A DNA stretch of 64,000 bases from Candidatus Poribacteria bacterium (GCA_965198235.1 OZ240248.1:1568001-1632000); one strand, 5' to 3'. Numbered from the stretch's first letter, positions 884 through 63,406 are shown. Numbers and translations are program-made. Notes: generated by a model not told the origin, from the sequence alone.

Positions 884-1168
884 TTTTTTAACTATTGGCA
901 CTTGGGCATCGTTCCATTACATTCCACGATGGTTTCTGGTGAAGTCAGGAACCTTTGAACTCTTGGAGCGGGTTGGAATTGACCAAAAACCACTGCGAAA
1001 CGAAATTATGCCTTAAATGGCATAATTTTGCTTCGCATTGTCCCGCAGGTTTCCTATAGAGGCTTGCGCAGAATGCTTTACATTTGGAGCAGTTTAACCA
1101 TCAACTCGACTCCGTTATAAATGTTAAAGCACGAGTTGATGGTTAACAGAGTCCCGTAGTTAGAAAAT
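884..1168. repeat. Family A intergenic hairpin element with nested modules
   Basis: TTTTTAACTAT...TAGTTAGAAAA ends; arm CATCG-15nt-CGATG at 907-931; nested AAATTATGCC-TTAAAT-GGCATAATTT palindrome and CAACTCG...CGAGTTG module. Confidence 0.85.
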
Positions 1169-1245
1169 CTTTACACGGCTTTTGGTTAGAATAGTGTTCT
1201 CAAAGAGGTTATGAATAATGAGCCGTTGCCTAAGAATTTTGCAGG

Positions 1246-2070
1246 CTAACCACTCGGAGCGCGGTTCGGTTGACTAAACCCTATGCCACGTTTGGAGGTT
1301 TCTATAAATTTAAGTAAATATTCAACTTCCGGCGTTGGTTCGAGTGTTTCTCTGACTCTGGCGACGGCATGCTTAAGTGGTAGCCCCGAGCGGAACAAGG
1401 TGCGGAACGCCTTCTTTAACGCCGCGAGTGTTTCAGGTGTGAGCTGTGACAAAGGGTTAATCCGTGATGTTCGGATACCGATACGGTTGAGGTCCCGAAC
1501 ACGCGCCGGTTGTCCGGCGGAGAGGGCAAAGGGTGGGATATCCTGCACGATCTTTGAGAAACCGCCTGCCATTGCCATCTTGCCTACGCGCACATATTGG
1601 TGCAGTGCCGCATGCGCCCCCAGTCGAACGTCATCTTCAATCACGACATGCCCCGCAAGCGAGACAAAGTTTGCCATGATTATCCTATTGCCGACGATGG
1701 TGTCGTGTGCAAGGTTAACCCAATTCATCAGCAAATTATTGTCCCCAACGATAGTTGCTTCCTCTTCAAAAGATGACCTGGAGATGGAGACGTATTCGCG
1801 TAGTATATTGCGATTCCCGATTTTCACGTAACTCCGCCAACCCCCGTACTTTAGGTCTTTGGATTCGTTACCGATGGTAGCACCGAAGAAGATTTTGCAT
1901 TCTTCGCCGATAGTTGTCCATTTTTCAACCTGAACATGGGGGCCGATCACCGTGCCGCGCCCTATATGGACATCTTCACCGACAAGACTGTAGGGGCCAA
2001 TCTTAACCCCTTCTTCCAACGTTGCTTTTGGAGAGATAATAGCCGTAGGGTGAATGTTGGTTTCTAGCAC
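1246..2070 (-). CDS. lpxA: UDP-N-acetylglucosamine O-acyltransferase LpxA
   Basis: IHPTAII start, hexapeptide repeats, QDIPPF and LNRIG motifs; lpx cluster. Confidence 0.93.
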   Translation of the reverse strand: MLETNIHPTAIISPKATLEEGVKIGPYSLVGEDVHIGRGTVIGPHVQVEKWTTIGEECKIFFGATIGNESKDLKYGGWRSYVKIGNRNILREYVSISRSSFEEEATIVGDNNLLMNWVNLAHDTIVGNRIIMANFVSLAGHVVIEDDVRLGAHAALHQYVRVGKMAMAGGFSKIVQDIPPFALSAGQPARVRDLNRIGIRTSRINPLSQLTPETLAALKKAFRTLFRSGLPLKHAVARVRETLEPTPEVEYLLKFIETSKRGIGFSQPNRAPSG

Positions 2071-2091
2071 AGATGTCCCTCCCTAATCTTG

Positions 2092-2245
2092 TTTTTAAAT
2101 GATCAGCCCTCGCGCACCGTTCCACTACGTTTCACGATGGTTACTGATTTGATTGAAGCCGCCTCTGTTGCAAAAACCCTGTTTGAATACATCGGAAACC
2201 ACCGTGTAATGAAATGGAGCGGTGCCCAGGTGTTAATCATTTAAA
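2092..2245. repeat. Family A element (plain form)
   Basis: Two inverted arms with 15-nt loops (TTCCACTACGTTTCA; TGTAATGAAATGGAG at 2205-2219) around a unique core. Confidence 0.8.
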
Positions 2246-2266
2246 GAATGTTAAAAGGACCACGGT

Positions 2267-3553: not shown

Positions 3554-3574
3554 TCGCTTTTGTCACCTTCTGTT

Positions 3575-3770
3575 TTTTTTACGATTGACTCTGGTCACTG
3601 CTCCATAAGTAAAACAAAGATAAATTATGCCATTTAAGGCATAATTTCATTCCGCAGTGGTTTTTGGTGAAGTTATGCCCAGTGCGGTTCGGAAATCCAC
3701 CTACCGGGGCTTCGGGACCGAAAACCATCCTGAAACGAAGTGGAACGATGCCCAGATTCAATCATTTAAA
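3575..3770. repeat. Family A element with nested palindrome
   Basis: Same arms plus AAATTATGCCATTTAAGGCATAATTT at ~3622-3647. Confidence 0.8.
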
Positions 3771-4800
3771 ATCCGCATTTTTCGTATCGTTCTATTGTGT
3801 TCTGAAAGCGTCTTTGAAAAGTGGTGCTTTCCCTCGCCTATCGCCACGAAGTAGAGATAGTCTGTTTTTTCGGGCCGCAGTGCAGCTATAATTGAATCAA
3901 TACCTGGATTCGCAATGGGACCAGGGGGTAAACCCTTGTGTTTATACGTATTGTAAGGCGAATCAACCTGTAGATCGGCTTTCGTCAAGGGTCTTTCTGG
4001 GTTCCCTAAGGCGTAAAGTACCGTTGGATCTGCCTGAAGCTTCCACTTTCGTGTAAGCCGGTTATGGAAGACACTTGAAATACGGGGGCGTTCCAGTCCA
4101 GATTGTGCTTCTTTTTCGATGACAGAAGCGAGCGTTACGATTTCGTGACGGGTACGCCCTAAATTTTGCGCCTCCTCGTCAAATTTTTCCGTCCATTGCT
4201 GTTTAAATTCATCAAGCATCATCTCAACAACTTTTTCAGTTGTTGTGCCTTTTGCGAATTTGTACGTATTCGGAAAAAGGTAGCCCTCTACAGTTTTGTC
4301 TGCAAGCCCGTACCGCTTCAACAAACGCGAGGATTCGGAGGCTTTCCGAAATGCCTCGGCTGTGCCAAAGCCGCTCATTTCCCAAAGTTCAGCAATAGCA
4401 GATGTCGTTAAACCCTCTGGCACTGTCCAGCTAACCAGCGTAACCTGCCCCTTTTCAAATTCATTGAGTAGATCCCACAACGCCATGTTCCGCCGTAACA
4501 TATAAGTTTCAGCTTGTAGGTGTCTACCAGTCCCTCTATATCGGACAACTATACGAAAGGCGTATTCGCTGCGTATTAGTTTTTGTTCAACCAATCGCTT
4601 TGCTATTGCCCGCGAACTACTCCCTACTGGTACGTCGAAATTAACAACCTCTTCTGACGATGTGGGTGGTAGCGTCAGGGATACCCCAATCAACAAAACA
4701 ATGAGGCAGAGAGCACCAAGACAGCAGAGCGTCAGTATGCCTATCTTAATTTTCGTGTTTTCGAGAGAGAAGTATCTTGACGACTTGGTGATTGGACAGA
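3758..4800 (-). CDS. mltG: Endolytic transglycosylase MltG (start uncertain)
   Basis: EGYLFPNTY, LASVIEKE, LQADPT, SPYNTY and GLPPGPI motifs; the TM helix lies upstream of the TTG at 4696. Confidence 0.88.
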
Positions 4801-4854
4801 TTTACCTTCTACTCCCTGTTCTGTTTGTGCAGACCCCATGTATTTTCATAATTC

Positions 4855-5002
4855 TTTAAATGATAGGCCCTCTGACTGTGCTCCATTACATTCCGCACAG
4901 GTTTTCGCTAAGAACGCACGAGTACTTTTTATCCTACATTTCTTAGAAAAGACCATCGTGGAACGAAATAGAACGATGAGCATTTGACCCTAGTTAGAAA
5001 AT
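4855..5002. repeat. Family A element
   Basis: Arm CTGTG-CTCCATTACATTCCG-CACAG at 4876-4900; ends TAGTTAGAAAA. Confidence 0.78.
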
Positions 5003-5048
5003 TGTTGGAGGGTCACCCGTAACACCTTGGCATATCCTAATGGAAAGA

Positions 5049-5495
5049 TCAGGAATGCTCTGTGGGTGCTGCAGGATTGATCTCCCGATTGCTATTCAAA
5101 TAGTCTTTGAGAATAATTACCGCTGCTACCTCGTCAATAAGTTCTTTCTGTGCTTTTGTGTCTTTGTTAAGATCGCGCAAAATCTCTTCTGCTTCAGCGG
5201 TTGTAAAACGTTCATCCTGAAATTCGATCGGAATGTCAATTACATGCTCCAAGCGTTGGGCAAACTTCTGGATCTTCTTCGCTTGCGTGCCAATAGAGCC
5301 GTCAAGAGAGATAGGCAAACCGATAACGACACGTTCCACCTTGTGGATGGAAATGAGATCCGAGATAGCAATTAAATCAACCTGCCGATTTTTTCGGGTT
5401 AGTGTACACAGTGGATGTGCCGCAATACCGAGAGCGTCGCTGAGCGCAACACCAATGCGTGTATCACCAACATCTAATCCGAGTAAAATTGCCAT
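5049..5495 (-). CDS. ruvX: RuvX/YqgF family nuclease
   Basis: LGLDVGDTRIGVALSD, VIGLP, DERFTT motifs; ATG at 5495 (the longer ORF start lies in a repeat). Confidence 0.93.
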   Translation of the reverse strand: MAILLGLDVGDTRIGVALSDALGIAAHPLCTLTRKNRQVDLIAISDLISIHKVERVVIGLPISLDGSIGTQAKKIQKFAQRLEHVIDIPIEFQDERFTTAEAEEILRDLNKDTKAQKELIDEVAAVIILKDYLNSNREINPAAPTEHS

Positions 5496-5635
5496 TTTTA
5501 AACGATTGCTCCTGGGCAAAGAAACACCCAAGCAAAAACCCCTCCATTTCATTGCGGGCAGGTTTCTGATAAAGTCCGTAACCCTTTCAAACCTAAAGCA
5601 GGTTCTCTACGTGCCCAGACCCAATAATTAAAAAA
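5496..5635. repeat. Family A element with AAAAACCCCAAGC-type words
   Basis: Core ~5570-5610 is an approximate reverse complement of the core at 56858-56903. Confidence 0.75.
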
Positions 5636-7414
5636 TTAGAAGCGGCCCGAACGCAAAATAGAGATTACCAATCCGAATCCAAAAAAAGTTGCAGTTAGAT
5701 AGCCCATAATGCCGAGAAAAAACTTCCATTCCCAGATTTCAGCGACTTGTAGGATGATCGACGAGCCTACAATCAATGAGGCAATGATGAGGCTAAAAGC
5801 GATCCGATTGACGACTCGATCGAATACCTTAATCACTGCTTCAAGGCTCAGATGCTCAAGCTCAAATTTAAGAGAACCTCGTTGTAATTTTTGCAGAATA
5901 CGATGCAGTTGAAGAGGCGTGTCTCGGACCAATTCCGTGAAATCTTCTATAGAATCTGCTACCTGCCGCTCCCACTGTTTACTTCCAAAATTTTGGACGA
6001 GAAATTGTGCAATATACGGTTGGCTGAATTTCAGGATATCGAAATCAGGATGCAGTTTCATCACAACCGATTCAACCGTCGCAACAGTCTTGCCGAGCAT
6101 TAAAAAGGCTGGCGGCACATGAATTTGATGACGCAATGATGCGTTAAAGACTTCGTGAATTACCTCGCCGAGACGGAGTCTACTCGGCGGCATATTGAAA
6201 TGACGCTCTAAAAAATCGTTCATTTCTAACTTTAACGCTGCGATGTCTGTTCCGTCCCCCAAAATACCCATTCGGATGTAGCTTCTAACGACCGCATCTA
6301 CGTCTTTAGTTAACACGGCACTCAGCCAACTACAGATATGACGCAACATATCGTTGCTTATCCTACCCACCATGCCGAAGTCTACCAGTCCGATCCGTCC
6401 ATCCTCTAAAACGAAAATGTTCCCCGGATGCGGATCCGCGTGGAAAAAGCCATCGCTCAGCACCTGTGTGTAGAATATTTCCACGAGCGTTTCAGCGAGT
6501 TCCGTCCGATCAAACCCCATCTCATCTAATTGGGCGATTGCGTTGATTGGTACACCATCGATCCGTTCCAAAGTCAAAACACGACGATTCGTGAATTCCC
6601 AATAGACTCTGGGAATTTTCACCTTCGGTGACGTTGCGAACCTCTGGTGGAACGCATCTGTATTTGCGGCTTCGATTGTAAAATCGATCTCTTTCCGAAT
6701 TGAGCGTGAGAACTCGCGGACGAGCTCAGTCGGTTTGAAGAGATGCATCTCTGGGTCTCGATTCTCAAGCCGTTCTGCTAACTCCATCAATAGGTTGAGA
6801 TCCGTCTGAATAATCGTTGCCACGCGTGGACGTTGGACTTTAACGACTACCGGCTCACCTGTTTCTAACGTTGCTGCGTGCACCTGTGCGATTGAAGCCG
6901 CCGCGAATGGCTGCCGTTCGTAGGTTAAGAAGACCTTCTCAAGCGGCAATTCGAATTCCTGTTCGATGGTGGTGCGGACCTCTGAGAAGTCGAAAGACTG
7001 TGCGTGTCGTTGCAATTTCTGGAACTCGGTGCTCCACGCTAGTGCTTCTTCTTGTCCGACGAGTTCAGAGAGAATGTCCACTCGGGTGCTGAGAACTTGT
7101 CCTAATTTTACGAACGTTGGTCCCAACTCTTCAAACGCAAGTCGCAAACGCTCTGGAACAGATAGGAGTGTCCCTGAAGTATTTTCATCTGAATCCTTTC
7201 TCACATTTCGGAAATCCCACCATCTCGATTTCTGGGAATGGGTATCTTCTCTCGCCTTCCGCGTGAACACACTTTTGAGTCTGAAACGACTTGTCCGTCC
7301 TCGCTCGAAAATTTGAGAGATGATATGTCCGAAGCCGTGTCTCGCAAGAATGCTAAAGATCTCAGGCAGACGTTTTGCACTTTTGAGTTTACGATTCAGG
7401 TTCAGAATGCGCAT
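5636..7414 (-). CDS. AarF/ABC1/UbiB family atypical kinase
   Basis: LGPTFVKLGQ, AAASIAQVH, VVVKVQRP, FFHADPHPGN and DFGMVG motifs; C-terminal TM helices. Confidence 0.92.
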   Translation of the reverse strand: MRILNLNRKLKSAKRLPEIFSILARHGFGHIISQIFERGRTSRFRLKSVFTRKAREDTHSQKSRWWDFRNVRKDSDENTSGTLLSVPERLRLAFEELGPTFVKLGQVLSTRVDILSELVGQEEALAWSTEFQKLQRHAQSFDFSEVRTTIEQEFELPLEKVFLTYERQPFAAASIAQVHAATLETGEPVVVKVQRPRVATIIQTDLNLLMELAERLENRDPEMHLFKPTELVREFSRSIRKEIDFTIEAANTDAFHQRFATSPKVKIPRVYWEFTNRRVLTLERIDGVPINAIAQLDEMGFDRTELAETLVEIFYTQVLSDGFFHADPHPGNIFVLEDGRIGLVDFGMVGRISNDMLRHICSWLSAVLTKDVDAVVRSYIRMGILGDGTDIAALKLEMNDFLERHFNMPPSRLRLGEVIHEVFNASLRHQIHVPPAFLMLGKTVATVESVVMKLHPDFDILKFSQPYIAQFLVQNFGSKQWERQVADSIEDFTELVRDTPLQLHRILQKLQRGSLKFELEHLSLEAVIKVFDRVVNRIAFSLIIASLIVGSSIILQVAEIWEWKFFLGIMGYLTATFFGFGLVISILRSGRF

Positions 7415-8735: not shown

Positions 8736-8741
8736 AGGTGT

Positions 8742-10281: not shown

Positions 10282-10365
10282 ATTTTCCTTGCGGTTCGGT
10301 GAAGTGAGTTGAATGAACCACGATCCGCTCCGTGGATCCGCACTCCACTTCGTTACGTGCTACTG
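10280..10365 (-). repeat. Family B element
   Basis: Minus strand reads GTAGCAC..GTGCGGATCCACG..CGAACCGCAAGGAAAATT. Confidence 0.7.
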
Positions 10366-10367
10366 AC

Positions 10368-10481
10368 ACCTATCAAGAACCTGCTCGTAATGAAATTAGG
10401 TTTCCTTAAATGGCATAATTTTGCTTCGCAGTGAGAATGCTTTACATTTGGAGAGCAGTCCAGGAGCCCATAGTTTAAAAC
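10368..10481. repeat. Family A right arm with nested modules
   Basis: CTGCT-CGTAATGAAAT[insert]TGGAG-AGCAG; ends just before ATG 10482. Confidence 0.78.
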
Positions 10482-12146
10482 ATGTTAAAAGATGTGATAA
10501 TTCTGCTAAGAGCGGATTTGCAAGGGTGGTTGAATGGTCTTAGGCGCGGTGGGGAAGCGTGGCGAAAAGCCGCTTTAAAGGGTATAGGTTACCTCGTGTT
10601 CATCGTTGCACTATCAGTGTTAGGTAACTCCCTTTTCACGCATTTACGGCTCACTGAGGCAGAGCCGACGCTTCTGCTGGGTGTAATTAATGGGTTCATG
10701 GTCTTCGGGATTATCGTTGTTGCCAAGGAGTTGATGGAGAGTTCGCTGAAGAGTCTATATGAGGCACCGGACACCGCGTTGTTACACGCTGCACCGATTC
10801 AACCGGTTGCAATTTTCGGATATAAGTTCATTCATCTCACTATCACGCGCTTTCTGAGTATCTTCTGTTTTTTGGGACCCCCATGGGTAGCGTTCGGTCT
10901 GATATTTGGATTGCCGTGGCATTTTTACGCGGTGCTGTTTCCAGTGTGCTTGTGTCTTCTGGTAATGATCGCGAGTTATGTTACCATCAGCGTGATGTTG
11001 ATTGCGCGTTTCTTTTCATCTGGGTGGCTCCTCGCAACACTCAAGGTACTCGGCACTGCAATCGGCGTAACGGTGGGTTTTCTGTTATCGTTGACACTGT
11101 TTTTCGAGTTTGAGCCGATCCACATAAAGCAATTTTTGCTCAATTGGGCTTCCGAGAGAACGACGGATACGACTGCTTCGTGGTATCCACACGAGTGGAT
11201 TGGGGAACTTCTGCTAAGTTGGGTGACTGAATCCACAATTGGTGTCCGGTTGAGATGGGCACTCGGAGGTATCGGAGGAAGTCTCACCGCTGCCGGAGTG
11301 GCAACGCTCGTCGCGCGACTGATTTATCAGCGCGGTTGGGAAAATATCCGACAATTGAAAGCCAAGCGTAAACCCGTGCGGAATACCATTGTCCCGCAAG
11401 CCTCTATAGGCTTGTGCCAGTCTAAGGCATCGCATCTGGAACGCATACGGCGGACCCTCGGGCGTGGCAAAATACGCTCTATGATGCTAAAGGACTTTCT
11501 CATTTTCGTCCGGCACAGTGGACGGCTAATTGCTATTGTGATGCTCACACTTTTTTTGGTAGTTCACATCGCTATCTTACTCGTGCATGAAGGTAGTGCG
11601 GATACGAACGCTGGGTTGGTTCTTACTGTGCAGATAGTTCTTTATAGCATGCTTATTACCTTCGGTATCAGTTGTAACGGTCTTCGAGATGAAGCGAAGA
11701 CATGGTGGATGCTGAAAGCCTCCCCTGTTACGCCGAAGTTAGTGTTCAAGAGTAAATTCCTGACTGCGCTTCTCTGTGCGCTGATGTATGCTGAATTCTG
11801 GTCCCTGTTCGCTGTTTGTCTGCTCCGAATTCCGAGAGATGCTTGGATACCTGTGATGCTAACGCCTGTCTTAACACTCCCGACAGCGTGTGCAATGAAT
11901 ACGGCGATTGGGACATTGCCGTGGATGGCAGAATTGACACATCAACCGAAACCGATCTTGCGAGTTTTAACGTTCACAGTGACGCTTATCGTTGATGTGG
12001 CACTTGTCCTCGCGCCGGTGATAACATGGTATACGGAAAGTCTCATTTCGTTTATTGGATTGGTAATCCTTCTTGCGGGTGTATTTGCTGTGTCCTATAG
12101 ATGGGGAGTAGGGAATCTCCGCAGGTTGTTGGTTGCGCAACAGTAA
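10482..12146 (+). CDS. Putative ABC-2 type permease
   Basis: Multiple TM segments in two halves; follows the ABC ATPase. Confidence 0.8.
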   Translation: MLKDVIILLRADLQGWLNGLRRGGEAWRKAALKGIGYLVFIVALSVLGNSLFTHLRLTEAEPTLLLGVINGFMVFGIIVVAKELMESSLKSLYEAPDTALLHAAPIQPVAIFGYKFIHLTITRFLSIFCFLGPPWVAFGLIFGLPWHFYAVLFPVCLCLLVMIASYVTISVMLIARFFSSGWLLATLKVLGTAIGVTVGFLLSLTLFFEFEPIHIKQFLLNWASERTTDTTASWYPHEWIGELLLSWVTESTIGVRLRWALGGIGGSLTAAGVATLVARLIYQRGWENIRQLKAKRKPVRNTIVPQASIGLCQSKASHLERIRRTLGRGKIRSMMLKDFLIFVRHSGRLIAIVMLTLFLVVHIAILLVHEGSADTNAGLVLTVQIVLYSMLITFGISCNGLRDEAKTWWMLKASPVTPKLVFKSKFLTALLCALMYAEFWSLFAVCLLRIPRDAWIPVMLTPVLTLPTACAMNTAIGTLPWMAELTHQPKPILRVLTFTVTLIVDVALVLAPVITWYTESLISFIGLVILLAGVFAVSYRWGVGNLRRLLVAQQ

Positions 12147-12375
12147 GGTTGATAATTAGTACTAAGTTTTGCGGGCGAGGTTTCCAAGCGCGCAGGAAAG
12201 AAGGTTTTTTAACTATCAAATCTGGGCACCGTTCCATGGCATTTCATCGAAGAAATCCCCTCCCCAGTAACGGGCGGGGACCCCGGTTTCTGATGAAGTC
12301 AAACCCCTTCTCGCAACTGTGACGGCACGGTAGGAGCAGTTTCCTAACTGCTCCGAACCCTTGAGAAAAGGAAAA

Positions 12376-14397: not shown

Positions 14398-14440
14398 CTC
14401 CGTCACCAATAAAATGGTGGGTGGTTCTCCATCAGTTAAA

Positions 14441-14640
14441 GCGCGTAAGCCCAAGCATCGCGCCGGGCTGGGTATACGGAGAAGATCGTTCTCGTAAAAC
14501 TAACCTTATCGAACCGCAAGGAAACTTAGAAATAGGAATTGGATAGAGCGCGTAAGCCCAAGCATCGCGCCGGGCTGGATATACGGGGAGGATCGTTCCC
14601 TCAAAACTGGCCTTATCGAACCGCAAGGAAAATTAAAAAT
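14441..14640 (+). repeat. Tandem pair of Family B elements
   Basis: GCGCGTAAGCCCAAGCATCGCGCCGGGCTGGRTATACGG...CGAACCGCAAGGAAA starts at 14441 and 14548; second copy ends at ATG 14641. Confidence 0.9.
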
Positions 14641-16008
14641 ATGGCAGTTGAATTAAGAATGCTTCAGATGGATCAGACAATGACCAAGGGGAAAATCGGA
14701 AAATGGCTGGTTAAGGAGGGCGATACCGTCACACAAGGACAACCTTTGTTAGAGATTGAAACCGATAAGGTCGTCCATGAACAGGAATCCCCCACTGATG
14801 GTGTTATCGCGCAATTGTTTGCTGAGGAGGGTGCCAATGTTCCTGTCAATGCTCTGTTAGCGATTATCGGGGCACCCGGAGAGGAAGTGGCACGCGTTGA
14901 AGTGGACACGGGGACAGTTGAAGTGGACACCACGCCGGAACCACAAGCGTCAGTGCAACCTGCACAACCGAAGGCAACGCCACCGACTGTGACCGTTGCA
15001 CCAAAAGCCTCGCCAGCGGCACGCCAACTTGCCGAAAAACTCGCTATTGACTTGACCGAGGTCAAAGCCTCTGGACCTGGGGGACGTATCCTTGAAAGCG
15101 ATGTCCAGCGATATATTGATTTGAGGGGACCGGCTCCAATTGAAGAAACGACACGACTTAGGGCATCACCGCTTGCCCGGCGATTGGCGAAGGAGCACGG
15201 AGTTGACCTGATTTCAATTGTCGGTTCAGGACCCGATGGCAGAATTGTCCGTGACGATGTGTTACAAGCGAGCGCAGCCGCCGCTGAAGCCCCCGTTATA
15301 GAGACACCTGTTCTCCAACAAGCGACAGAAGTTATTCCTATGGGTGGCATCCGTGAAATTATCGCAGAGCGGATGACCATGAGCCTTCAAACTAACGCCA
15401 GCGTCACACTCCACACAGAGGTTGACGCAACGGCTTTCGTCGAACTACGTCGGATGCTCAACGATAAACTGCAGGCGAGAGAGGTGAGTCTCACCTACAC
15501 CGACCTGCTCGTTAAAGTCGTAGCAAACGCTTTGCGGGAATACCCTCGACTCAACGCAACACTCACGGATGAAGGGATTCATCTATTGCCGGAAATTAAC
15601 ATCGGTGTAGCCGTCGCACTGGACGATGGACTGGTGGTGCCAGTAATACGGAATGCGGACAAGGAGAGGTTATCGGAGATCTCTGATCAGGTAAGAGGTT
15701 TCGCAGAGCGGGCACGTAGTAATCAATTGACACCCGGTGAACTTCAAGGTGGCACCTTTACCATTACAAATCTCGGGAACTTCGGAATTGATGCTTTCAC
15801 GCCTATTATCAATCCACCGGAGAGTGCTATTCTTGGGGTGGGACGGATTCTGAAAAAGCCGGTTGTTCACGACGATGAGATTGTTGTCCGTAGCATGCTG
15901 ACCCTGAGTTTGACGTTTGACCATCGTGTGATAGACGGTGCGCCTGCAGCGCAGTTTCTACAAACGGTCTCCAGCTATATTCAAGATCCATATCTGTTGT
16001 TAGTGTAG
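14641..16008 (+). CDS. Dihydrolipoamide acyltransferase (E2)
   Basis: Lipoyl ETDK motif, two ASPxARxLA E3-binding domains, DHRVIDG. Confidence 0.93.
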   Translation: MAVELRMLQMDQTMTKGKIGKWLVKEGDTVTQGQPLLEIETDKVVHEQESPTDGVIAQLFAEEGANVPVNALLAIIGAPGEEVARVEVDTGTVEVDTTPEPQASVQPAQPKATPPTVTVAPKASPAARQLAEKLAIDLTEVKASGPGGRILESDVQRYIDLRGPAPIEETTRLRASPLARRLAKEHGVDLISIVGSGPDGRIVRDDVLQASAAAAEAPVIETPVLQQATEVIPMGGIREIIAERMTMSLQTNASVTLHTEVDATAFVELRRMLNDKLQAREVSLTYTDLLVKVVANALREYPRLNATLTDEGIHLLPEINIGVAVALDDGLVVPVIRNADKERLSEISDQVRGFAERARSNQLTPGELQGGTFTITNLGNFGIDAFTPIINPPESAILGVGRILKKPVVHDDEIVVRSMLTLSLTFDHRVIDGAPAAQFLQTVSSYIQDPYLLLV

Positions 16009-16114
16009 GGCTACCAATATTCTGTCTGTAGAGATTCAATTTCATCAAAGTGTGCGTCTCGTGTGACAAGAATCAAATCGTGTTGCATGGCAAGTGCCGC
16101 AATTCAAATATCAT

Positions 16115-17380
16115 CAAAACCTTTGGGCTGGAAACCCCACACTTTAGTGTGGGGAGGAAAGCCCCCTCCTATAATTAAAGTTCAGACGCGTAAGCACCCT
16201 AAAATCAGATTCTTGCGCACTTTGAGTGAGGCGTTGGTTTCCTTCCAAAGAATACAGAGAAATACCGGTTTTCCCAAACCCGCTAATACGGGTCAGCCCA
16301 TGCTTGACATGCTTGACGAGTGTATTCTTTACCAATCTGTTCCAAGTCGTGCCACCATAGCGGGGGCGTTTACCGCCTTTTTGAGGATTTTGCCGGTGCA
16401 GTTCTCGCCTGATAATAGGGATAGGGGAGATACAGAAAACATCTCTATTATCAACCCTATCTTTGCCGCCTATTCTATGATATACCAAGCACCAACTATC
16501 TACACAATGCGCTTCAAACGTCTCCGCAAGTTTTTTAGAAGACTTCTTCAAACCCAACCTATCACGAATCTCTTTCGTCTCCCACCCTTGGAGTGTCAAT
16601 AACTCCCACCGCTTCTGAATTTCAGTGTAGAACCATGCTTTGCCAACTTCGAGCGGACTAAAAGACGTATTCCACTTTTTCGCATGCTTTATCGTCCTCG
16701 CTTTTATGTTCTCAACACAAACATGACGGATAGGGAACAACCCTGATAACCAGTCTAATATCCGAAGTTTCCACTCCCAACGGGCGCGCGTGCCTGCGGG
16801 GATACGTGCTTGATTTGCCAGACGATTCATGCGGTTTTTGCGATTCGGACATTTCCGAGAACGCCTCCCTCTGCGCAACTCACGACGCTTTTCAACTTTC
16901 TTACCCACCTGGGTGTGTGCGTCTGCCTGCACATTCAAATACGTATGTGACTTGCTTTTCACGGTAAAGCCTTCTTTCTTGCTACCGGGGTCTACCCCTA
17001 CAGCGATCTCTTGTGTTTTTCTCTCAGAAGGCTCTTTGTTGAGACGGATACAATAAATACCATTATCCCAGTAGGGGGTTGCCTCGTCTCGCTTTATCAA
17101 CTTGCGCGCACGGGCGGAATGCATGGGCATGAGTATTTGACCGTCTTTTGCTTTTACAGGAACAAACATAAGTTTCTAATTCTCTTACAAAAGTAAGGTG
17201 TGTATTGCCCCTTCCAGATCACATATCCAAGGGGAATCAGACGAGGGGAGTATCCAAAACATTGTACTGGCTGCCACGCCGAGATATGCGATATATTACT
17301 GTAGACAACGGTTTAACTTATGGAGAGGTGCTTGGCAGGCACTTCGCAGAAGCCTCACGCTTTAGCGTGAGGTAGTTGAC
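16115..17380 (-). mobile_element. IS200/IS605-superfamily non-autonomous IsrB element
   Basis: Begins GTCAACTACC; subterminal hairpins CCTCACGC-TTTA-GCGTGAGG (17353-17372) and CCCCACAC-TTTA-GTGTGGGG (16135-16154); no target duplication; removal restores vapC. Confidence 0.88.
16144..17169 (-). CDS. isrB: IsrB (RRXRR, HNH-less IscB relative), predicted RNA-guided nickase
   Basis: PLMP-like ILMP, RuvC-I GVDPG, Arg-rich bridge helix RRELRRGRRSRK, RuvC-II VENI, RuvC-III HCVD; no HNH; 341 aa. Confidence 0.85.
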   Translation of the reverse strand: MFVPVKAKDGQILMPMHSARARKLIKRDEATPYWDNGIYCIRLNKEPSERKTQEIAVGVDPGSKKEGFTVKSKSHTYLNVQADAHTQVGKKVEKRRELRRGRRSRKCPNRKNRMNRLANQARIPAGTRARWEWKLRILDWLSGLFPIRHVCVENIKARTIKHAKKWNTSFSPLEVGKAWFYTEIQKRWELLTLQGWETKEIRDRLGLKKSSKKLAETFEAHCVDSWCLVYHRIGGKDRVDNRDVFCISPIPIIRRELHRQNPQKGGKRPRYGGTTWNRLVKNTLVKHVKHGLTRISGFGKTGISLYSLEGNQRLTQSAQESDFRVLTRLNFNYRRGLSSPH

Positions 17381-17400
17381 TGTCTGGAATAAGATTTCCT
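17175..17400 (-). ncRNA. Predicted omegaRNA (5' guide from the flank plus ~200-nt scaffold)
   Basis: Non-coding stretch between the element end (GTCAAC at 17380) and the isrB start, the established position in IscB/IsrB loci; ends inferred. Confidence 0.7.
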
Positions 17401-17578
17401 TTCTGCCGTAATTGATCTTTGATGATTCCAAACCACTGTGACGTTTCTAAGTCGCAAGAAAAGAGTGGGAATCTCTGCGTCTGCAGCCAAGAACATTTTA
17501 TCGGTATTTTCCACTTTTTCTTGAATTACTTTGTCCGCGGCAAACATCCCGATAATGATATTCGTGTCTAAAAGGTAC

Positions 17579-17809
17579 TTACCATTCTGATTCATCAACC
17601 CGTCCGCAGTCCTCCTCAATTGCTTGTTTTATTTCCTCAAGGTCTTCGGGGGGGAACAGCCCGACAAATTTAAGCAGCTCCTTACCGGAGGTGCCTCTTA
17701 TCGGTTCGCCTAAAAAAGAGAGAACAGAATTTAAAATCTGTTTCTGTTGCACAGGCGTAAGTTTGTCTAACCGCTCCACAATCTCTTGGATAGTCGTTGA
17801 TTTTTCCAT
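17579..17809 (-). CDS. Putative antitoxin partner of vapC
   Basis: 76 aa acidic protein overlapping the vapC start; GGAGG RBS. Confidence 0.75.
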   Translation of the reverse strand: MEKSTTIQEIVERLDKLTPVQQKQILNSVLSFLGEPIRGTSGKELLKFVGLFPPEDLEEIKQAIEEDCGRVDESEW

Positions 17810-17895
17810 CGTTTTACCTCCTTTTTGCCTAAATCCAAAAGAATAATAGCCATTACTATTATACAATAGGAAAATGGTGATTTTCAACGTTAAAA

Positions 17896-37471: not shown

Positions 37472-37476
37472 GAACA

Positions 37477-52710: not shown

Positions 52711-52763
52711 AACAAAATGATAGCGTACGGAACTACAGAACCTCACCATCTTTATCTAATTCA

Positions 52764-52955
52764 TGTAAGCCCAACCAACGGGCGGGCTGGATATACGCAA
52801 GAGGTTTCTCTTTACATAATCTGCCTAAACGAACCGCAAGGAACATTATTTTTGTCTAATTGGTGTAAGCCCAACCAACGGGCGGGCTGGATATACGCAA
52901 GAGGTTTCTCTTTACATAATCTGCCTAAACGAACCGCAAGGAACATTAAAAAAAT
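52764..52955 (+). repeat. Tandem pair of identical Family B elements (period 100)
   Basis: 85-nt unit TGTAAGCCC...GAACCGCAAGGAACATTA at 52764 and 52864; abuts ATG 52956. Confidence 0.92.
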
Positions 52956-55653: not shown

Positions 55654-56430
55654 ATGAAACCGATTATCATAGTTTTTTGCCTCATTGCCTTATGTTTTAG
55701 TGTTGATGCGTGGGCATTAAACGATGACAAGGCGCTCATGTTGTACTTCACTTTCGATGAAGACGACGGTGGCAAAGTTGTAGATGTAACTGGAAATAAC
55801 ATTGAAGGCACCTTTGAAGGTGCGGTCTGGTCGAAAGATGGTAAGATTGGCGGTGCTGTGCATCTTGAAGATTCCGGGCAGTTTGTAGAGGTTGACACGG
55901 TCCCCGAACTCGACATTACCGATGAGATCACGATTCAGGCATGGTTTTTCCCTGAGGAATCCCAAGGTGACTCTAACCTGATGGGGCGTAGAAGTTCGGC
56001 AAACGTCGGTGGGTATTGTCTCCAGTGGAGCGCGCAGTTTACGGGTTCCCCACAAATTGAGACCTGGATTAACATCGGCGGGTGGAAAGGTTCTCGAAAT
56101 AAACAGACTATTAAACCCGACTTGGAAAAATGGCACCACGTCTCTTCTACCTACGATGGCGATATGATTCGCCAATATATTGATGGCAAGTTGGATGTCG
56201 AATTCGCACCACCGAAAGGTAAAATTAACAGCATTGAGGTGGTCTTCCGTATCGGTAAGGCACAAACGGGGTTACCCGGCATGATTGGCTTGGTCGATGA
56301 GGTTGCCATTTACGACCGCGCCCTCACCGTTGACGAGATTAACCAAGATATGGAAAACGGCGTTTACTTTGCTGTGTCGCCCAATGACAAGCTTGCCTCA
56401 ACGTGGGGTAAGTTGAAAATGTTTTTTTAA
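55654..56430 (+). CDS. Secreted LamG-like protein
   Basis: YFTFDE, WHHVSSTYDG, DEVAIY; tail AVSPNDKLASTWGKLK. Confidence 0.87.
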   Translation: MKPIIIVFCLIALCFSVDAWALNDDKALMLYFTFDEDDGGKVVDVTGNNIEGTFEGAVWSKDGKIGGAVHLEDSGQFVEVDTVPELDITDEITIQAWFFPEESQGDSNLMGRRSSANVGGYCLQWSAQFTGSPQIETWINIGGWKGSRNKQTIKPDLEKWHHVSSTYDGDMIRQYIDGKLDVEFAPPKGKINSIEVVFRIGKAQTGLPGMIGLVDEVAIYDRALTVDEINQDMENGVYFAVSPNDKLASTWGKLKMFF

Positions 56431-56685
56431 CTATTAAGTTTTTGCGCATCGCTCCAAATGTAAAGCATTCTGCGCAAGCCTATAGAGGCTTGCGGGACAA
56501 TGCGAAGCAAAATTATGCCATTTAAGGAAACCTAATTTCGTTCCGCGATGGTTTCTGATTAAGTATGAAAGGGTCTCGGGGAACCTGCCCGAAACGAAGT
56601 GGAGGGGTTTTTGCTTGGGGTTTTTGATAGGGCGTTTCTGCGGATTTCTGCGGATTTTTTTAGCCCAGGAAACCATAGTTAGAAA
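56422..56685. repeat. Family A element, fully nested form
   Basis: Contains the CAAGCCTATAGAGGCTTG module, the palindrome and a word array. Confidence 0.85.
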
Positions 56686-56737: not shown

Positions 56738-56800
56738 GACACCCTTGATGTTTCTGCCCGCGGCAAACTGGCAACGGTATGGGGTCAGTTGAAGAAATAG
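56738..56800 (+). pseudogene. Orphan C-terminal tail of an LTTTWG-family gene
   Basis: DTLDVSARGKLATVWGQLKK* with no gene body. Confidence 0.65.
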
Positions 56801-56957
56801 TTTTTAATTTATTGAATCTGAGCATCGTTCCACTTCGTTTCACGATGGTTTTTGGGGAAGTAGAAAACCTGCTTTAGGTTTGAAAAGGTTACTGACTTTA
56901 CCGGAAACCACTGCGGGATGTAATGGAGCCGTGCTCAGATTCCAATAGTTAGAAAAA
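56800..56957. repeat. Family A element (plain form)
   Basis: AATCTGAGCA...TGCTCAGATT outer inverted repeat; both 15-nt loop arms. Confidence 0.88.
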
Positions 56958-57019
56958 TTGCATCTGTCTATTGCCTATTGCAACTGAGATGGGCGGGATT
57001 CATTCTCGCCCATTTTTCG

Positions 57020-59004: not shown

Positions 59005-59025
59005 ACATGGCTGTCCGAATTTTTG

Positions 59026-59676
59026 TTACGGGAGTTCAGACACAACGCCCTTAAGCGCGCCCTCTTGCTCCGCAAGTACTTTGAGTTCCGGGTTGAGACG
59101 GACTGCTTGCGTAAGCGAGTTTACCGATTTTTGCGATGCACCCTCCAATGCGTATGCGCACGCAAGGTTGTAATGGAGCAGGGCAGCCTGCGGAAAGGTT
59201 TGAAGGGCGCGCAGGCACGATGCACGCGCATCGGCGGGTAGATTCTGTTGGAGATAGGCGGTTGATAGATTGACATAGCCTTCCGCGATATCGGGTGCCA
59301 TCTCAATCACTTTTTTAAAGTTCTCAACAGCGGGAGCATATTGCTCGTCATATAGATAGGCTTGCCCAAGGTTATTGTAAGCCGACGGTTCTTTGATGAA
59401 GAATAGTGTGCGCCCTTTATTTTTTATTGCCTTCTGATACGCTTCAATTGCTTCCTTGGCTTCGCCGTTGCGCATCAGAAAAGTTGCTTTCCGGTAGTGA
59501 TCGTTGAATTGGGTTTGGTGGTGCCAGACCCAGAGAAACAGTACCGTTACTGCAAGGCAAAACGTCATACAGACAATTCTAAAAGCTTTGTTGGTAGGTG
59601 TCTGTTCGGAGTCCTGCTCCTCTGTAGGCGAATGCTCTGGAACTTGATTTTCATTGGAAGTCATAAATTTTTCCAT
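59026..59676 (-). CDS. Membrane-anchored TPR protein
   Basis: TM helix; AYNNLG, YVNL, YNLACAYA. Confidence 0.85.
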   Translation of the reverse strand: MEKFMTSNENQVPEHSPTEEQDSEQTPTNKAFRIVCMTFCLAVTVLFLWVWHHQTQFNDHYRKATFLMRNGEAKEAIEAYQKAIKNKGRTLFFIKEPSAYNNLGQAYLYDEQYAPAVENFKKVIEMAPDIAEGYVNLSTAYLQQNLPADARASCLRALQTFPQAALLHYNLACAYALEGASQKSVNSLTQAVRLNPELKVLAEQEGALKGVVSELP

Positions 59677-59890
59677 TTTTTAGATAATTGGCCTCTTGGG
59701 TTGCTCTCCAAATGTAAAGCATTCTCACTGCGAAGCAAAATTATGCCATTTAAGGCATAATTTCATTACAAGCAGGTTTCTGGTGAAGTCAGAAACCTTG
59801 GGCACCCCAGAAGTGATTGGAATTAACCGAAAACCACCGCGTAATGTAATGGAGCGGTGCCTATATTCAATAGTTAAAAAAGTTAAAAAT
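59677..59890. repeat. Family A element between divergent start codons
   Basis: Nested left arm; CACCG-15-CGGTG at 59835-59859. Confidence 0.85.
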
Positions 59891-60940
59891 ATGAAAACAT
59901 ACGGATTTGGTATTATTGGGTGCGGAATGATCTCCGATTTCCATTCCGCCGCGATTTCTGAATTAGAACACGGGCAATTGGTCGCAGTCAGTTCACGTAA
60001 TGCTGAGAACGCCAAACGACTTACCGATCGATACAACGTTGAAAGCTACGCCGATTATGCCGAGATGCTCAAACGGGACGATCTGGATATCGTTTGCGTC
60101 TGTACGCCAAGCGGTGCGCATTTGGAACCCGCCGTCGCTGCAGCGGAAGCCGGTAAACACGTCATCGTTGAAAAACCCTTGGAAATCACGCTACCGCGGT
60201 GTGATCAGATTATTCAAGGGTGTGATGCATCCGATGTCCGGCTCTGCGCTATCTTCAATTCCCGCTTCACGGAAAGTACGCAACTCGTAAAATCCACAAT
60301 TGAGAGTGGACGGTTCGGCAAGTTAACCTTGGGTGATGCCTACATCAAGTGGTACCGTTCCCAAGAGTATTACGACAGCGGCGGCTGGCGAGGAACGTGG
60401 GACCTTGATGGTGGTGGCGCGCTCATGAACCAGTCTATCCACGCTATCGACCTACTCCAGTATTTTATGGGACCCGTTAAATCCGTCCAAGCGTTTACTG
60501 ATACCTTAGCACACGAACGGATAGAGGTCGAAGATGCCGCTGTTGCCGCACTCCGATTTGAAAACGGGGCACTCGGTGTCATCGAAGGCACAACTGCCGC
60601 TTTTCCCGGCATGCTTAAGAAAACTGAAATCTCCGGCACAAACGGAACTGTCGTCTTAGCGGAAGAGGACATTGTAACTTGGGAATTCGACCCAGAACTG
60701 CCTGAAGATGCGGAGATCCGAGAGAAATTCGCCCAGAGGACAGACACAGGCGGTGGCGCATCCGACCCAAGAGCTATTAACCATGCCAATCACCGGCGGC
60801 AAATGGAAAACCTCATTAATGGTCTTGAGAGCGATGCCTCACATCTCGTTGATGGGCGCGAGGGACGCAAAGCCGTTGAGATTATCCTCGCTATCTACCA
60901 GTCCAGTCGTGAGGGATGTCCCGTTGAATTGCCGTTGTAA
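59891..60940 (+). CDS. Gfo/Idh/MocA oxidoreductase
   Basis: GCGMIS, VEKP, GGGALMNQSIHAID. Confidence 0.92.
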   Translation: MKTYGFGIIGCGMISDFHSAAISELEHGQLVAVSSRNAENAKRLTDRYNVESYADYAEMLKRDDLDIVCVCTPSGAHLEPAVAAAEAGKHVIVEKPLEITLPRCDQIIQGCDASDVRLCAIFNSRFTESTQLVKSTIESGRFGKLTLGDAYIKWYRSQEYYDSGGWRGTWDLDGGGALMNQSIHAIDLLQYFMGPVKSVQAFTDTLAHERIEVEDAAVAALRFENGALGVIEGTTAAFPGMLKKTEISGTNGTVVLAEEDIVTWEFDPELPEDAEIREKFAQRTDTGGGASDPRAINHANHRRQMENLINGLESDASHLVDGREGRKAVEIILAIYQSSREGCPVELPL

Positions 60941-61372
60941 CGGCAGAGCGGAGTCCGCCTACTGTTCTATCCATTTTGAATTTTAGGGTAAGTTCGTAGT
61001 AGTGCGGTTTATCGCACTGCTTCGCAGTGAGAACAGGTCAACAACGGGCAATGAATTGCCCTACTACAAACCGAGGAAACATCCTCCAATTTGAAACTGG
61101 ATAAAGTACTACTACTATTCATATCACCCAAACCATACGTTTGTAGCACAATCTGTTAGATTGTGATTTTACGTGGCAGCCGCTATTATATTGTGGGTAA
61201 TAGCCCCAGCAGGAGCGGGGAAATCCGCAGAAATCCGCAGAAATACCCAAGCAAAAACACCCCTATCAATACGCAGAAATACCCAAGCAAAAACACCCCA
61301 AGCAAAAACCCTCCGATTCCCGACTTCCACTTCCGAACCTACCGCTCGGTATGTTTGCGTCTGTCCTAATTG

Positions 61373-62430
61373 TTACGACTTCGCTAACGCTTTCAAAACG
61401 TGTTGATGGAGTTTTCCGTTGGTTGCGATGATACCGCGATTCTTATGCATCCGCTTTCCTGTCAGAAAGTTGAGAGGAATGCCGTTCGCGTCTGTTACCG
61501 TGCCTCCTGCTTCTTCAACTACGATAAGTCCTGCAGCGTGGTCCCAGATGCATTCGCGGTAATCTGGGTAAGCCGGATTCGGAAGACGGATATAGAGCGA
61601 CGCTTCGCCACGGGAAACGATGCCGTACTTCGCTTGGCTGTCCATGCGGATGGGCGATTCTGTAATTCCGAGGGCATTCGCAATGCTACTGTGTGCATCA
61701 CTGTCCCCGTGCGTGGATTCGAAGCTCTCTGCGAAGCGATGTACCGCTTCCGATACGTGTACTTGCTCTATGAAGTCCCCTGCTTTAGTGTAGAGCCGCG
61801 TGCCTTCGCCGCGGATGGCGACAAAGAGGCATCCATGTTCTGCGTTTCCATCGTTCAACCGGTACGGCAAGTTTGGGCACCCTAAAACGCCGAGTTGAAC
61901 AGTGCCATTGACGATATAAGCCAAGGCGATTGCGTACTGATCGCGACGAAGAAAGCCTTTCGTGCCGTCAATTGGGTCAAGTGTCCAGAAGTTCGGTCCA
62001 ACCTCACCACTTCCCCGATCAATCCATTCACAGACAGTTTCTGCTGAGTGCAGTGTGTCTTTGCAAAATCGGTTCACATAACCTGTGACGCGTTCTAAGA
62101 GCGAGGCGTTCTCTTTCAGTGCCTGCGCGCTTTCCTCAGCAACAATAACGTCGTCGGGAAAAGCATCGCCAATTGCCTTGCATATCAGTGCCTGTGATCC
62201 GAAGTCGGCGACAGTTACGGGACTCCGGTCTGTCTTTTGGATTGCATCTGTTGGCACCATCTCAGCTTGCACCTGTTCGCAGAGTTGCATGGCTTTTATC
62301 ACAGCGTCAATGGCAGTTTGTACTTTGGCTATCGGCTCGAACCCCCAACTCGTGCTTTGCTGTCTTGTATCGGAGTCGAGTTGGGGATTCGGGCTTTCAG
62401 CCGTCAGCAAAGAGGGTTTTTGATTTGTCA
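61373..62430 (-). CDS. 3'(2'),5'-bisphosphate nucleotidase (HAL2/SAL1 type); start uncertain
   Basis: SPVTVADF, WTLDPIDGTKGFLR, MDSQAKY, IWDHAAG. Confidence 0.9.
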
Positions 62431-62523
62431 TCGGTTTCCTGTTTGGTTTGAAAGTTTCCAAAAACTGGTAGAGAGCCCGCTGACAGCCGAAGGTTCTCAC
62501 TGCGAAGCAGGCTGACCGCTATT

Positions 62524-63171
62524 TCAGCGTCTGTTGAATTGGTTCATTGCTGTAAGAATATCATCTTTGACGAAGGTTTCAATGGCATCAACGGCACGGT
62601 CGATGGTATGTGCTATCTCAATTTCTTCGTCTTCTGTAAAACCCGTAAGAACATAATCGGTTAAGTCGCCGATGGATTCGCCGATGCCGATGCGTAAGCG
62701 CGGAAAAGCAGTAGTGCCCAAATGATGGATGATAGACTTCATTCCCTTCTGACCTCCATCACTCCCCTTCTGCCGCATCCGAAGCACACCGATGTCTAAG
62801 TGAATATCATCGTAGACGATGCACAGTTCCGGGGATGAAATCTCGAACTGCCTAACAAGTGCGGCGACAGCGGTGCCACTGTTGTTCATATATGTCATCG
62901 GCTTCGCGAGGATAATAGGGACGTCGTGCCATGTCGTCTGCATAACGAGTGATTTGCAAATTGATGTATGGGTCAAATGGCTATCGGAAACCATCGGCTT
63001 TCGGCTATCAGTGCCAAGAGGTTTTCGTTTAATGACACCCTCTTGCTGACTGCTGACTGCTGATGGCTGACGGCTATTTTCGTAGAGTGCGTCAATCACG
63101 CGAAAACCGACGTTATGTTTGGTCTGCTCGTAGCGTATCCCTGGATTGCCGAGTCCAACAATGAGTTTCAC
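62524..63171 (-). CDS. pth: Peptidyl-tRNA hydrolase with a 31-aa repeat-derived insertion
   Basis: GLGNPG, HNVGF, KPMTYMNNSG, RLRIGIG. Confidence 0.93.
   Translation of the reverse strand: MKLIVGLGNPGIRYEQTKHNVGFRVIDALYENSRQPSAVSSQQEGVIKRKPLGTDSRKPMVSDSHLTHTSICKSLVMQTTWHDVPIILAKPMTYMNNSGTAVAALVRQFEISSPELCIVYDDIHLDIGVLRMRQKGSDGGQKGMKSIIHHLGTTAFPRLRIGIGESIGDLTDYVLTGFTEDEEIEIAHTIDRAVDAIETFVKDDILTAMNQFNRR
62979..63077. repeat. Family C element inside pth
   Basis: Heptamer-ladder palindrome with GGCTAT direct repeats 93 nt apart. Confidence 0.85.
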
Positions 63172-63172
63172 T

Positions 63173-63406
63173 TTTTAATTATACCTTGCGGATAAGTAAC
63201 GGAGTTTGTAACTTGACACTTTTCGTGTTTGAGTTGAAGAAACACCCAAGCAATACGCAGAAATACCCAAGCAAAAACACCCTGCGCCGTTGTTGCAGGC
63301 TTGGTTTTTGATGTATCCTGTATTCCTTTTTAAAGATAGACAAGCGTTTCACCAGAAACCTGCCCGTAATGAAATGGAGGGCAGTCCAAGAGTCCATAAA
63401 TTAAAG
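63173..63406. repeat. Family A element with word array
   Basis: CTGCC-CGTAATGAAATGGAG-GGCAG at 63360-63384. Confidence 0.75.

Follow-up and report, generated by a model that had tools for sequence, protein, structure and literature searches.

Introduction

The genes in a 64,000-nucleotide (nt) stretch of a Candidatus Poribacteria genome (GCA_965198235.1 OZ240248.1:1568001-1632000; hereafter the window, numbered from its first letter) are separated at many points by a hairpin-forming repeat, here called Family A. The question raised by this locus is whether such a repeat is a selfish passenger of the genome or a working part of the genes that it adjoins. An original prediction, made from the window alone, described about 15 copies of an intergenic hairpin with changing stems, a fixed loop and T-rich and A-rich ends, and likened them to repetitive extragenic palindromes (REPs) and their hairpin-forming doublets (REPINs). 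Family A is a real family with a strongly supported structure, belongs to one phylum among the scan matches listed, and is new within the interspersed-repeat kind. The register of its arms with start and stop codons, a start-side GGAG, its presence in essential operons, and hairpins that are unchanged or compensated at orthologous sites indicate that the host retains many of the copies as functional components of gene expression. Read from sequence, it is roughly an even call whether Family A is a modular intergenic cassette, similar to REPs and to MITEs (miniature transposable elements with inverted repeats), that has been co-opted as mRNA leader and intercistronic spacer.

The family and its distribution

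The motif YTCCAYTWCRTTHCR occurs in 13 exact copies in the window and in none of 100 dinucleotide-preserving shuffles. With up to two mismatches there are 22 matches (shuffle mean 8.3, largest 18), and with the stem ends and GGTT added to the motif there are 11, against none in the shuffles. A covariance model (R1), built from an alignment (A3) of 140 arms and applied to the window at E<1e-3, recognises 20 arms making up about 15 elements, in agreement with the predicted copy number. Over stretches of 100 nt or more, the window copies share 69–92% identity with one another, and thus represent an old, diverged family with no recent burst.

A scan of genome contigs in a sequence collection, with the loop pattern plus stem ends as query, gives at least 104 loci (cited below by L numbers), and 95 of 104 loci are titled Poribacteria among the matches listed. 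Two loci titled 'uncultured bacterium' (L039 and L085) bear true full arms. Five inspected non-Poribacteria loci have neither complementary stems nor T-rich ends, and four non-Poribacteria loci searched with the covariance model yield nothing at E<=0.01. As far as the scan shows, Family A is restricted, among the matches listed, to the Poribacteria, which are sponge symbionts. The window shares orthologous stretches, 69–86% identical, with L067 and L064. The density of arms in the window is 20 per 64 kilobases (kb), and the genomes of L001–L080 hold only 6 more arms in about 276 kb of flanking sequence, the central ascertained element excluded.

The comparison with Rfam that had been suggested gives no window match at gathering score (Rfam 15), and at E<=1 five loci return merely far sub-threshold microRNA-precursor and SmY snRNA models. 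A blastn search of a plasmid collection with one whole element (171 nt) finds no match, and no description of Poribacteria repeats of such kind was found in open-access full texts and preprints. Cyanobacterial small dispersed repeats and Nezha were considered as an identity for the family and dropped on gene content and the collection scan, which lead to Poribacteria.

Anatomy and fold of the arm

An arm is about 63 nt long and is conserved from about position -29 (TTTTTAA) to +34, counted from the loop start; the predicted T-rich and A-rich ends are real. Its parts are, in order, a T-rich outer end (T5AA, TTTTTAA), about 12 nt, CTGGGC, a 5-nt stem, the 15-nt motif, the complementary stem and GGTTTYYGGT. 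All the stems previously listed are present, namely CATCG/CGATG (907), CACCG/CGGTG (2197 and 59832), CTGTG/CACAG (4876), CTGCT/AGCAG (10381), CATTG/CAATG (33287), CCTCG/CGAGG (37501), CGTTG/CAACG (37582) and CTGCC/GGCAG (63357). The stem of 5 base pairs (bp) and the 15-nt loop originally described are there as well, but there is further pairing between loop positions 1 and 15 (C-G in 90 and T-A in 44 of 140 arms), so that the stem is really 6 bp and the loop 13 nt within a hairpin of 25–27 nt. The stem sequence is free provided that pairing is kept. The 13-nt loop is fixed in sequence and contains a covarying 2-bp helix capped by three bases: positions 6 and 10, adjoining an invariant A-U, are C-G in 78, T-A in 59 and otherwise in 3 of 140 arms. 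On the purine-rich strand the loop is YGDAAYGWARTGGAR, in which a helix of two pairs, flanked by G/A-rich mismatches, closes a G-W-A triloop. GNA triloops are stable, and by analogy with them the YGDAAYGWARTGGAR loop can probably form a compact mini-hairpin.

The compensation claimed for the stems is borne out. Of 1120 cells (eight proposed pairs in 140 arms), 94.9% are paired, against 68.7% with partners shuffled, a level attained in 0 of 500 shuffles, and sliding the 3' partner by 1–3 columns leaves just 17–49% of cells paired. Haplotypes were counted too, because related copies inflate cell counts. All seven variable pairs are Watson-Crick in 95 of 142 arms, which fall into 30 pair-haplotypes, and a minimum spanning tree of these requires at least 31 compensated pair replacements. 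Given 59 start-side arms and no structure, RNAalifold predicts exactly this hairpin and nothing else.

Many arms occur singly, and others are paired in inverted orientation with a short core between them; the earlier description of two inverted arms per copy fits the pairs and not the single arms. Elements measure about 160–215 nt and contain no open reading frame (ORF). Predicted ORFs exclude 105 of 117 arms, and most of the remaining 12 lie at over-extended ORF starts. In 23 elements with both loops intact, stem pairing amounts to 203/230 within arms and 111/230 between arms, which rules out pairing between arms as the origin of the covariation, and the two arms share a stem in a single element (1/23). 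Paired arms with different stems imply that each arm folds independently. As the compensation belongs to this local fold, the fold is read as single-stranded nucleic acid, in line with the proposal that it is recognised as single-stranded DNA (ssDNA) or RNA. The alternative then offered, a copying process that perfects hairpins, may also have acted.

Folded whole as RNA, two-arm elements have one long hairpin as their best structure (-47 to -64 kcal/mol, z -3.4 to -8.1), because the remainder of the arms consists of inverted repeats; in these predicted folds the T-run is paired with the A-run. Wobble pairs were also used to ask which strand is read, and transcript-side G-U mismatches number 6 versus 3 on the other strand, numbers too small to be telling. 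A terminator role was rejected, since on either strand the hairpin comes after the T-run and ahead of the A-run, and the arms do not stand out in a scan for terminators.

Register with start and stop codons

The arms stand in register with the ends of genes. With the purine-rich loop read on the top strand, an ORF of 90 codons or more begins 15–80 nt after the loop in 70 of the 115 arms with an exact loop. In 47 of those the ORF starts exactly 26–29 nt after the loop, directly after ...TTAAAAA, and the start-register arms number 59 when short loci are counted. An nhmmer list, independent of the exact-loop set, contains 126 arms, of which 103 can be classified by gene position. More than half of the latter, 52/103, abut a start codon (START arms), 46 of them at offset +1 or +2; 34/103 abut or contain the stop codon of a gene entering the T-rich end (STOP arms), 18 of them via the TAA of TTTTTAA; and 17/103 are neither. 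Among paired arms, eight pairs join a stop to a start, the element filling the whole spacer between the genes.

A START arm makes up the last 60 nt or so before the gene, ends in ...TTAAAAA-ATG and carries the loop YGDAAYGWARTGGAR on the coding strand. The gene upstream is co-directional in 41/46 cases, and the stop-to-ATG spacers mostly measure 143–221 nt, the size of a whole element. GGAG or GAGG stands between stem and A-run in 28/48 START arms versus 5/26 STOP arms (Fisher p 0.0015). Arm-less genes of the window have an ordinary GGAGG 6–9 nt upstream of the ATG, and the arm-adjacent lpxI and lpxA retain a GGAGG-type site between arm and start. Furthermore, arms lie inside essential core operons, including the site between the ribosomal protein genes L18 and S5 (L013, also L063), nuo (L019), rib (L031) and pheST (L040).

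Conservation and turnover at orthologous sites

Ten orthologous gene comparisons across species, with third codon positions 47–82% identical, give a measure of how strictly the hairpin is kept. The 25-nt hairpin is 100% identical in 8 of the 10, and the 85 nt farther upstream are 49–88% identical. In L012/L087 and L035/L059 two stem pairs have changed, each together with its partner, a like compensated change affecting an inner pair in the former and the closing pair in the latter. Perfect 6-bp hairpins are found in 44/48 START arms, 21/26 STOP arms and 14/41 arms away from gene ends. The codon register of the arm ends, together with hairpins kept at orthologous leaders, points to a role in gene expression beyond selfish mobility.

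The content of a spacer may also differ between orthologues. The element at 30639–30830 is absent from the orthologous L064 spacer, and where the window has the arm 12203–12315 the orthologous L067 spacer is about 70 nt long and without the hairpin. An ABC-type gene is preceded by a long-loop CTGCT arm in the window and by a short-loop CATCG arm in L067, and L018 and L048 carry different arms at one site between flanks that are 90% identical. In L055, an extra insertion of about 230 nt (about 2150–2290) lies beside a conserved element and is absent from the orthologous L036; it consists of GGATGGAAGGAACGGAAGG-type repeats, inverted copies thereof and one more arm.

Loop inserts and related contexts

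In several arms the loop is split between CTCCA and TTTCATTACG by an insert of 46–83 nt that contains a perfect 10-bp hairpin (loop ATTTAA) and, in some cases, a further nested hairpin. The window sites are at about 1003, 3624, 10400, 30775, 33310, 35880, 56512 and 59740. Two of the 15-nt loops originally listed, at 10381 and 33287, belong to such long-loop arms; their stem pairing stands, and their loop is not continuous but split by a 46–57-nt insert. All 14 true occurrences of the 10-bp insert hairpin in the window and loci are inside an arm loop and in one orientation. Read gene-ward, the insert is TGGCATAAT, resembling an extended -10 box. A promoter consensus scan flags ATGAAA-18-CATAAT at 10390–10419, 33296–33325 and 35868–35897, each aimed at a start-flush gene, and flags nothing in 59600–59960. 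As judged from its sequence, the loop insert may be a candidate promoter module. A promoter in the outer end, serving leaderless mRNAs, was also considered and is unsupported by the scan of 59600–59960.

Two further repeated contexts contain the loop-and-stem unit as well. The one called 'family C' is a leader cassette of the order hairpin - GGATATACGG - ... - ACCGAACCGCAAGGAAA - TTAAAAAT - ATG, with the ATG 67–68 nt after the loop. Its sites include 10340–10360, 14440–14641 and 52751–52948 in the window, and L041, L042, L059, L076 and others. In the window, variants of 'family C' with a different hairpin are tandemly duplicated (100–107 nt) ahead of the genes at 14539 and 52956. Additionally, short tandem arrays of 13-nt GTTTTTGATAGGG-like and 10–12-nt TTTCTGCGGA-like units at 30851–31159, 35765–35787, 56603–56657 and 61220–61244 adjoin arm-like units whose loop stands between AAAAACCC and GGCAGG.

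Alternative explanations

Several observations weigh against reading Family A as a host-retained leader that acts in mRNA. G-U pairs make up about 1% of cells, which is low for an RNA helix. STOP hairpins are kept about as well as START hairpins (21/26 versus 44/48, p 0.26), and since STOP transcripts show the complementary, pyrimidine-rich loop, a strand-symmetric constraint at the DNA level explains the equal preservation more simply. Taken together, the two points fit a DNA-level reader, such as an HUH enzyme, rather than an RNA-only function. The GGAG sits about 14–16 nt before the ATG, compared with 6–9 nt for the Shine-Dalgarno (SD) sequence of arm-less window genes. At larger distance the arm subtype changes at the same gene, so that turnover, too, is apparent from these alignments. 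Comparison of the window with L064 and L067 and of eight locus pairs reveals no clean empty site, the element content simply differing, and no clear target-site duplication was found, the comparison of window 12150–12364 with L067 not being clean; the ends, TTTTTAA and TTAAAAA, would conceal a palindromic duplication of TTAA or TA. Lastly, the arm density of the window is perhaps atypical, and copy number may vary strongly by lineage or region.

The main rival, which we consider rather unlikely, is a selfish REPIN-like element, with the hairpin as ssDNA site of an HUH tyrosine transposase (RAYT-like or IS200/IS605-like) encoded elsewhere, and with the gene-end position merely reflecting where insertions are tolerated. 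REPs are high-copy, extragenic palindromic units of 20–40 bp; in most of them, according to PMC3733652, the palindrome bears at one end a GTAG or CGTC tag that is unpaired. According to the same source and PMC3116915, their stems show complementary changes, they lie mostly between co-directional genes, and they persist long in a lineage; REPINs are hairpin-forming REP doublets linked to RAYTs (PMC3116915). Family A is much alike in being made of high-copy intergenic hairpin units, often in inverted pairs around a spacer, mostly between co-directional genes, with compensated stems and long persistence in one lineage. Its 25–27-nt hairpin, its 20 arms per 64 kb and its 105 of 117 arms outside predicted ORFs agree with the REP unit. 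The mosaic clusters of E. coli known as bacterial interspersed mosaic elements are a REP-type comparison. The preservation of the hairpin in both orientations with nearly all pairs Watson-Crick, fitting a constraint on both DNA strands, also favours this explanation, as do the differing presence of elements in orthologous spacers, the inserts nested within loops, and the IsrB gene of the window, which implies that IS200/IS605-type elements occur in the genome.

The likeness to REPs and REPINs that was originally drawn therefore holds for architecture and fails in detail. A column profile from 139 arms has CTGGGC as 5' and GGTTTY as 3' flank, with neither tag nor its complement conserved, unlike the REPs of PMC3733652. 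The 23 inverted pairs do form long-hairpin folds, yet their arm stems differ in 22 of 23, the paired arms being of differing types, and many arms are single. Conservation is reversed: Family A has a conserved loop of 13–15 nt and a variable stem, whereas REPs have loops mostly of 2–3 nt and family-specific stems. Half of the Family A arms are flush with start codons, whereas REPs are mainly downstream of genes. The original prediction was right that the window has no mobilising enzyme: neither a transposase nor any other is found among its genes, and a Pfam search of 150 of 272 neighbour genes of the loci finds no transposase, integrase or reverse transcriptase. No RAYT is seen in either set. 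All-against-all clustering of 889 ORFs from 104 loci gives merely housekeeping and expanded metabolic families, with no recurrent non-housekeeping neighbour. The 69–92% identity of window copies speaks against a recent burst. Moreover, the ATG register of 46 arms, the enrichment of GGAG, and hairpins unchanged at orthologous genes with near-saturated third codon positions need host-level selection.

A second alternative is a purely vertical RNA motif that regulates in cis as operator of a single global RNA-binding protein, never mobile and spread only by gene duplication. Translational operator hairpins, such as CsrA-type GGA-loop sites and phage coat-protein operators, are bound by protein near the ribosome binding site. 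Family A resembles them in having a variable paired stem and a fixed GGA-containing loop just upstream of an SD-like GGAG and a start codon, and differs in its far higher copy number and its additional, inverted occurrence at stop codons. Conservation at orthologous leaders, a fixed ATG distance in two unrelated leader types (26–29 nt, and 67–68 nt in 'family C') and the predominance of the sense orientation (52 START versus 34 STOP) are as such a motif would have them. Against it, the downstream genes come from many unrelated families, antisense arms stand at stop codons and in inverted pairs, element content differs between orthologous spacers, and inserts are nested within loops, all of which makes this explanation improbable.

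Very improbable, in our view, is a MITE moved by a DDE transposase that reads the terminal inverted repeats of about 63 nt as double-stranded DNA, the hairpins being incidental. Bacterial MITEs (Correia, the enterobacterial repeats ERIC/IRU, Nezha) are non-coding, 150–200 nt long, with inverted AT-rich ends, are co-transcribed with their neighbours, form long hairpins and have some insert variants. Two-arm copies of Family A, with inverted terminal arms of about 63 nt in elements of about 160–215 nt without an ORF, match this pattern in their small size, AT-rich ends and terminal inverted repeats, and a palindromic target duplication could be concealed in the outer TTAA. However, recognition as double strand would not account for the 31 or more compensated changes within arms, nor for the way in which an element's two ends diverge precisely at the stem (the same in 1 of 23). 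Each end has its own covarying hairpin, many arms are single, and the start/stop register is exact, all in distinction to MITEs. The TAA of the outer end varies (A at 73% and 65%), and neither a clear target duplication nor a parent insertion sequence with Family A ends was seen in the 395 kb of window and loci. Mycobacterial interspersed repetitive units (MIRUs) are a further comparison. They are tandem 40–100-bp units with small in-frame ORFs that fill operon spacers, their ends overlapping the flanking stop and start codons. Family A likewise fills intercistronic spacers and ends at stop and start codons, whereas MIRUs lack arms of the conserved-loop hairpin kind. That the family is a product of chance similarity or of faulty assembly is next to inconceivable, given the absence of any match in 100 shuffles and the presence of the same family in many independent assemblies of one phylum.

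Elements and genes of the window

The window has a G+C content of 47.8%, and its genes include those for LpxI, LpxA, LpxC-FabZ, a sulfatase, many GFO/IDH/MocA proteins, PhyH and enolase-superfamily proteins. The first element, E1, has a left arm at 882–961 (+; CATCG/CGATG, loop 912–926; covariance model 79.2 bits, E 4e-14), whose T-rich outer end is 24 nt from the LpxI start (858), lpxI retaining its own SD. The right arm of E1 (967–1100, -), placed by a partial nhmmer match (1006–967) and by reading the sequence, has its loop split by a TTATGCC..GGCATAA hairpin insert and a further nested insert. Between lpxC-fabZ and lpxA lies E2 (2090–2249), whose two arms, 2090–2170 (+) and 2170–2249 (-), score 54.9 and 71.7 bits and whose long-hairpin RNA fold has -59.3 kcal/mol (z -8.1). 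The covariance model also delimits E3 (3572–3774), with a long-loop arm at 3572–3689 (+) and an arm at 3696–3774 (-), the YceG stop codon (3758–3760) being inside its outer end, and E4 (4851–5003), with arms at 4851–4930 (+; CTGTG/CACAG) and 4924–5003 (-; CATCG/CGATG, one loop mismatch). E5 (5493–5637) has its loop in a AAAAACCC-loop-GGCAGG context (48.8 bits) and a weak partner arm at 5575–5637 (-; 18.3 bits, E 0.27). E6 (10340–10483) joins a 'family C'-type short hairpin (10340–10360, +) to a long-loop arm (10363–10483, -; CTGCT/AGCAG) that ends flush with the ATG of the gene at 10482.

Farther on, a single arm with an insert 3' of the loop occupies 12203–12315 (+; 32.5 bits, E 2.7e-4). E8 (30639–30830) consists of an arm at 30639–30717 (+; degenerate stem CATTG/CGAAG) and a long-loop right arm, and an arm-like unit with its loop in the AAAAACCC context (30983–31033, -; 19.4 bits, E 0.16) adjoins the 13-nt tandem repeats. 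Two long-loop arms with the stem CATTG/CAATG are flush with start codons, one (33257–33377, -) at the ATG of a metallo-beta-lactamase-fold gene (33376) and the other (35829–35949, -) at that of the PhyH gene (35948). E11 (37475–37633; covariance model and fold) has two arms, CCTCG/CGAGG and CGTTG/CAACG, and fills a whole spacer: the ORF at 36977–37471 stops 6 nt ahead of the T-run, and directly after the A-run comes an ATG. E12 (56421–56606) comprises a long-loop arm with nested inserts, just 3' of the stop of the gene at 55654–56430, and a AAAAACCC-type unit at 56588–56606 (-). It is followed by E13 (56799–56958), with arms at 56799–56877 (+) and 56879–56958 (-) and an RNA fold of -64 kcal/mol (z -7.4).

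In the spacer of divergent genes, E14 (59675–59883) has a long-loop arm at 59675–59795 (+), flush with the start of a TPR gene (59676, -), and an arm at 59805–59883 (-) that ends 8 nt before the ATG of a GFO/IDH/MocA gene (about 59891). Since E14 is the entire spacer, any promoters for both genes should lie inside it. The last single arm (63329–63409, -; CTGCC/GGCAG) has its outer end against the stop codon of the gene at 63409–63963 (-). Three ORF predictions run into arms, at 5049–5552 (-), 37488–38825 (+) and 59696–60940 (+). The first, RuvX, has its first ATG inside an arm loop; the other two have predicted starts inside arms, and their likely true start is the ATG directly after the A-run.

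Among the genes of the window is an IsrB homologue of 341 aa with an RRXRR domain (16144–17169, -), which matches PDB 8dmb at E 1.8e-33 and IscB chains more weakly. IsrB is an RNA-guided nickase. The gene adjoins a ResIII helicase gene (17896–20940) and a large N6/N4 DNA methylase gene (20998–24261), both on the minus strand. A search for the HEARO and omega RNA families around it (15900–18000) gives nothing at E<=1.

Proposed role and significance

Family A as a co-opted cassette would be part of the mRNA, serving as a standard leader and as a spacer between cistrons and supplying its own translation signals. The hairpin would be a recognition site, by structure plus loop, for a putative factor. 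In the two-arm form the upstream arm would pair with the leader arm and mask the region just before the ATG, and a ribosome terminating in the T-run would open this fold, leading to translational coupling. The family may first have spread as REP/MITE-like mobile DNA, with copies that fitted gene boundaries being retained.

A bolder form of this proposal, which we put forward as a tentative possibility, is a phylum-wide plug-in cassette: a hairpin operator of a putative global factor on hundreds of leaders, bringing with it a stop context, a ribosome binding region and, in the long-loop arms, a promoter, with coupling by the two-arm form, and thus a domesticated mobile element serving as operon punctuation. 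If so, the regulated leaders would include those of ribosomal-protein and respiratory operons.

The arms are already of use in annotation, as they fix the exact position of the start codons beside them, and several ORFs of the window have predicted starts that run into arms. If the co-option of Family A is true, many leaders and spacers in an uncultivated phylum of sponge symbionts would be built from one structurally constrained module. It would provide a testable handle on post-transcriptional control in unculturable organisms, with a defined hairpin, a defined distance to the ATG and natural compensatory variants. Furthermore, it would represent a clear case of interspersed repeat DNA retained through host-level selection.

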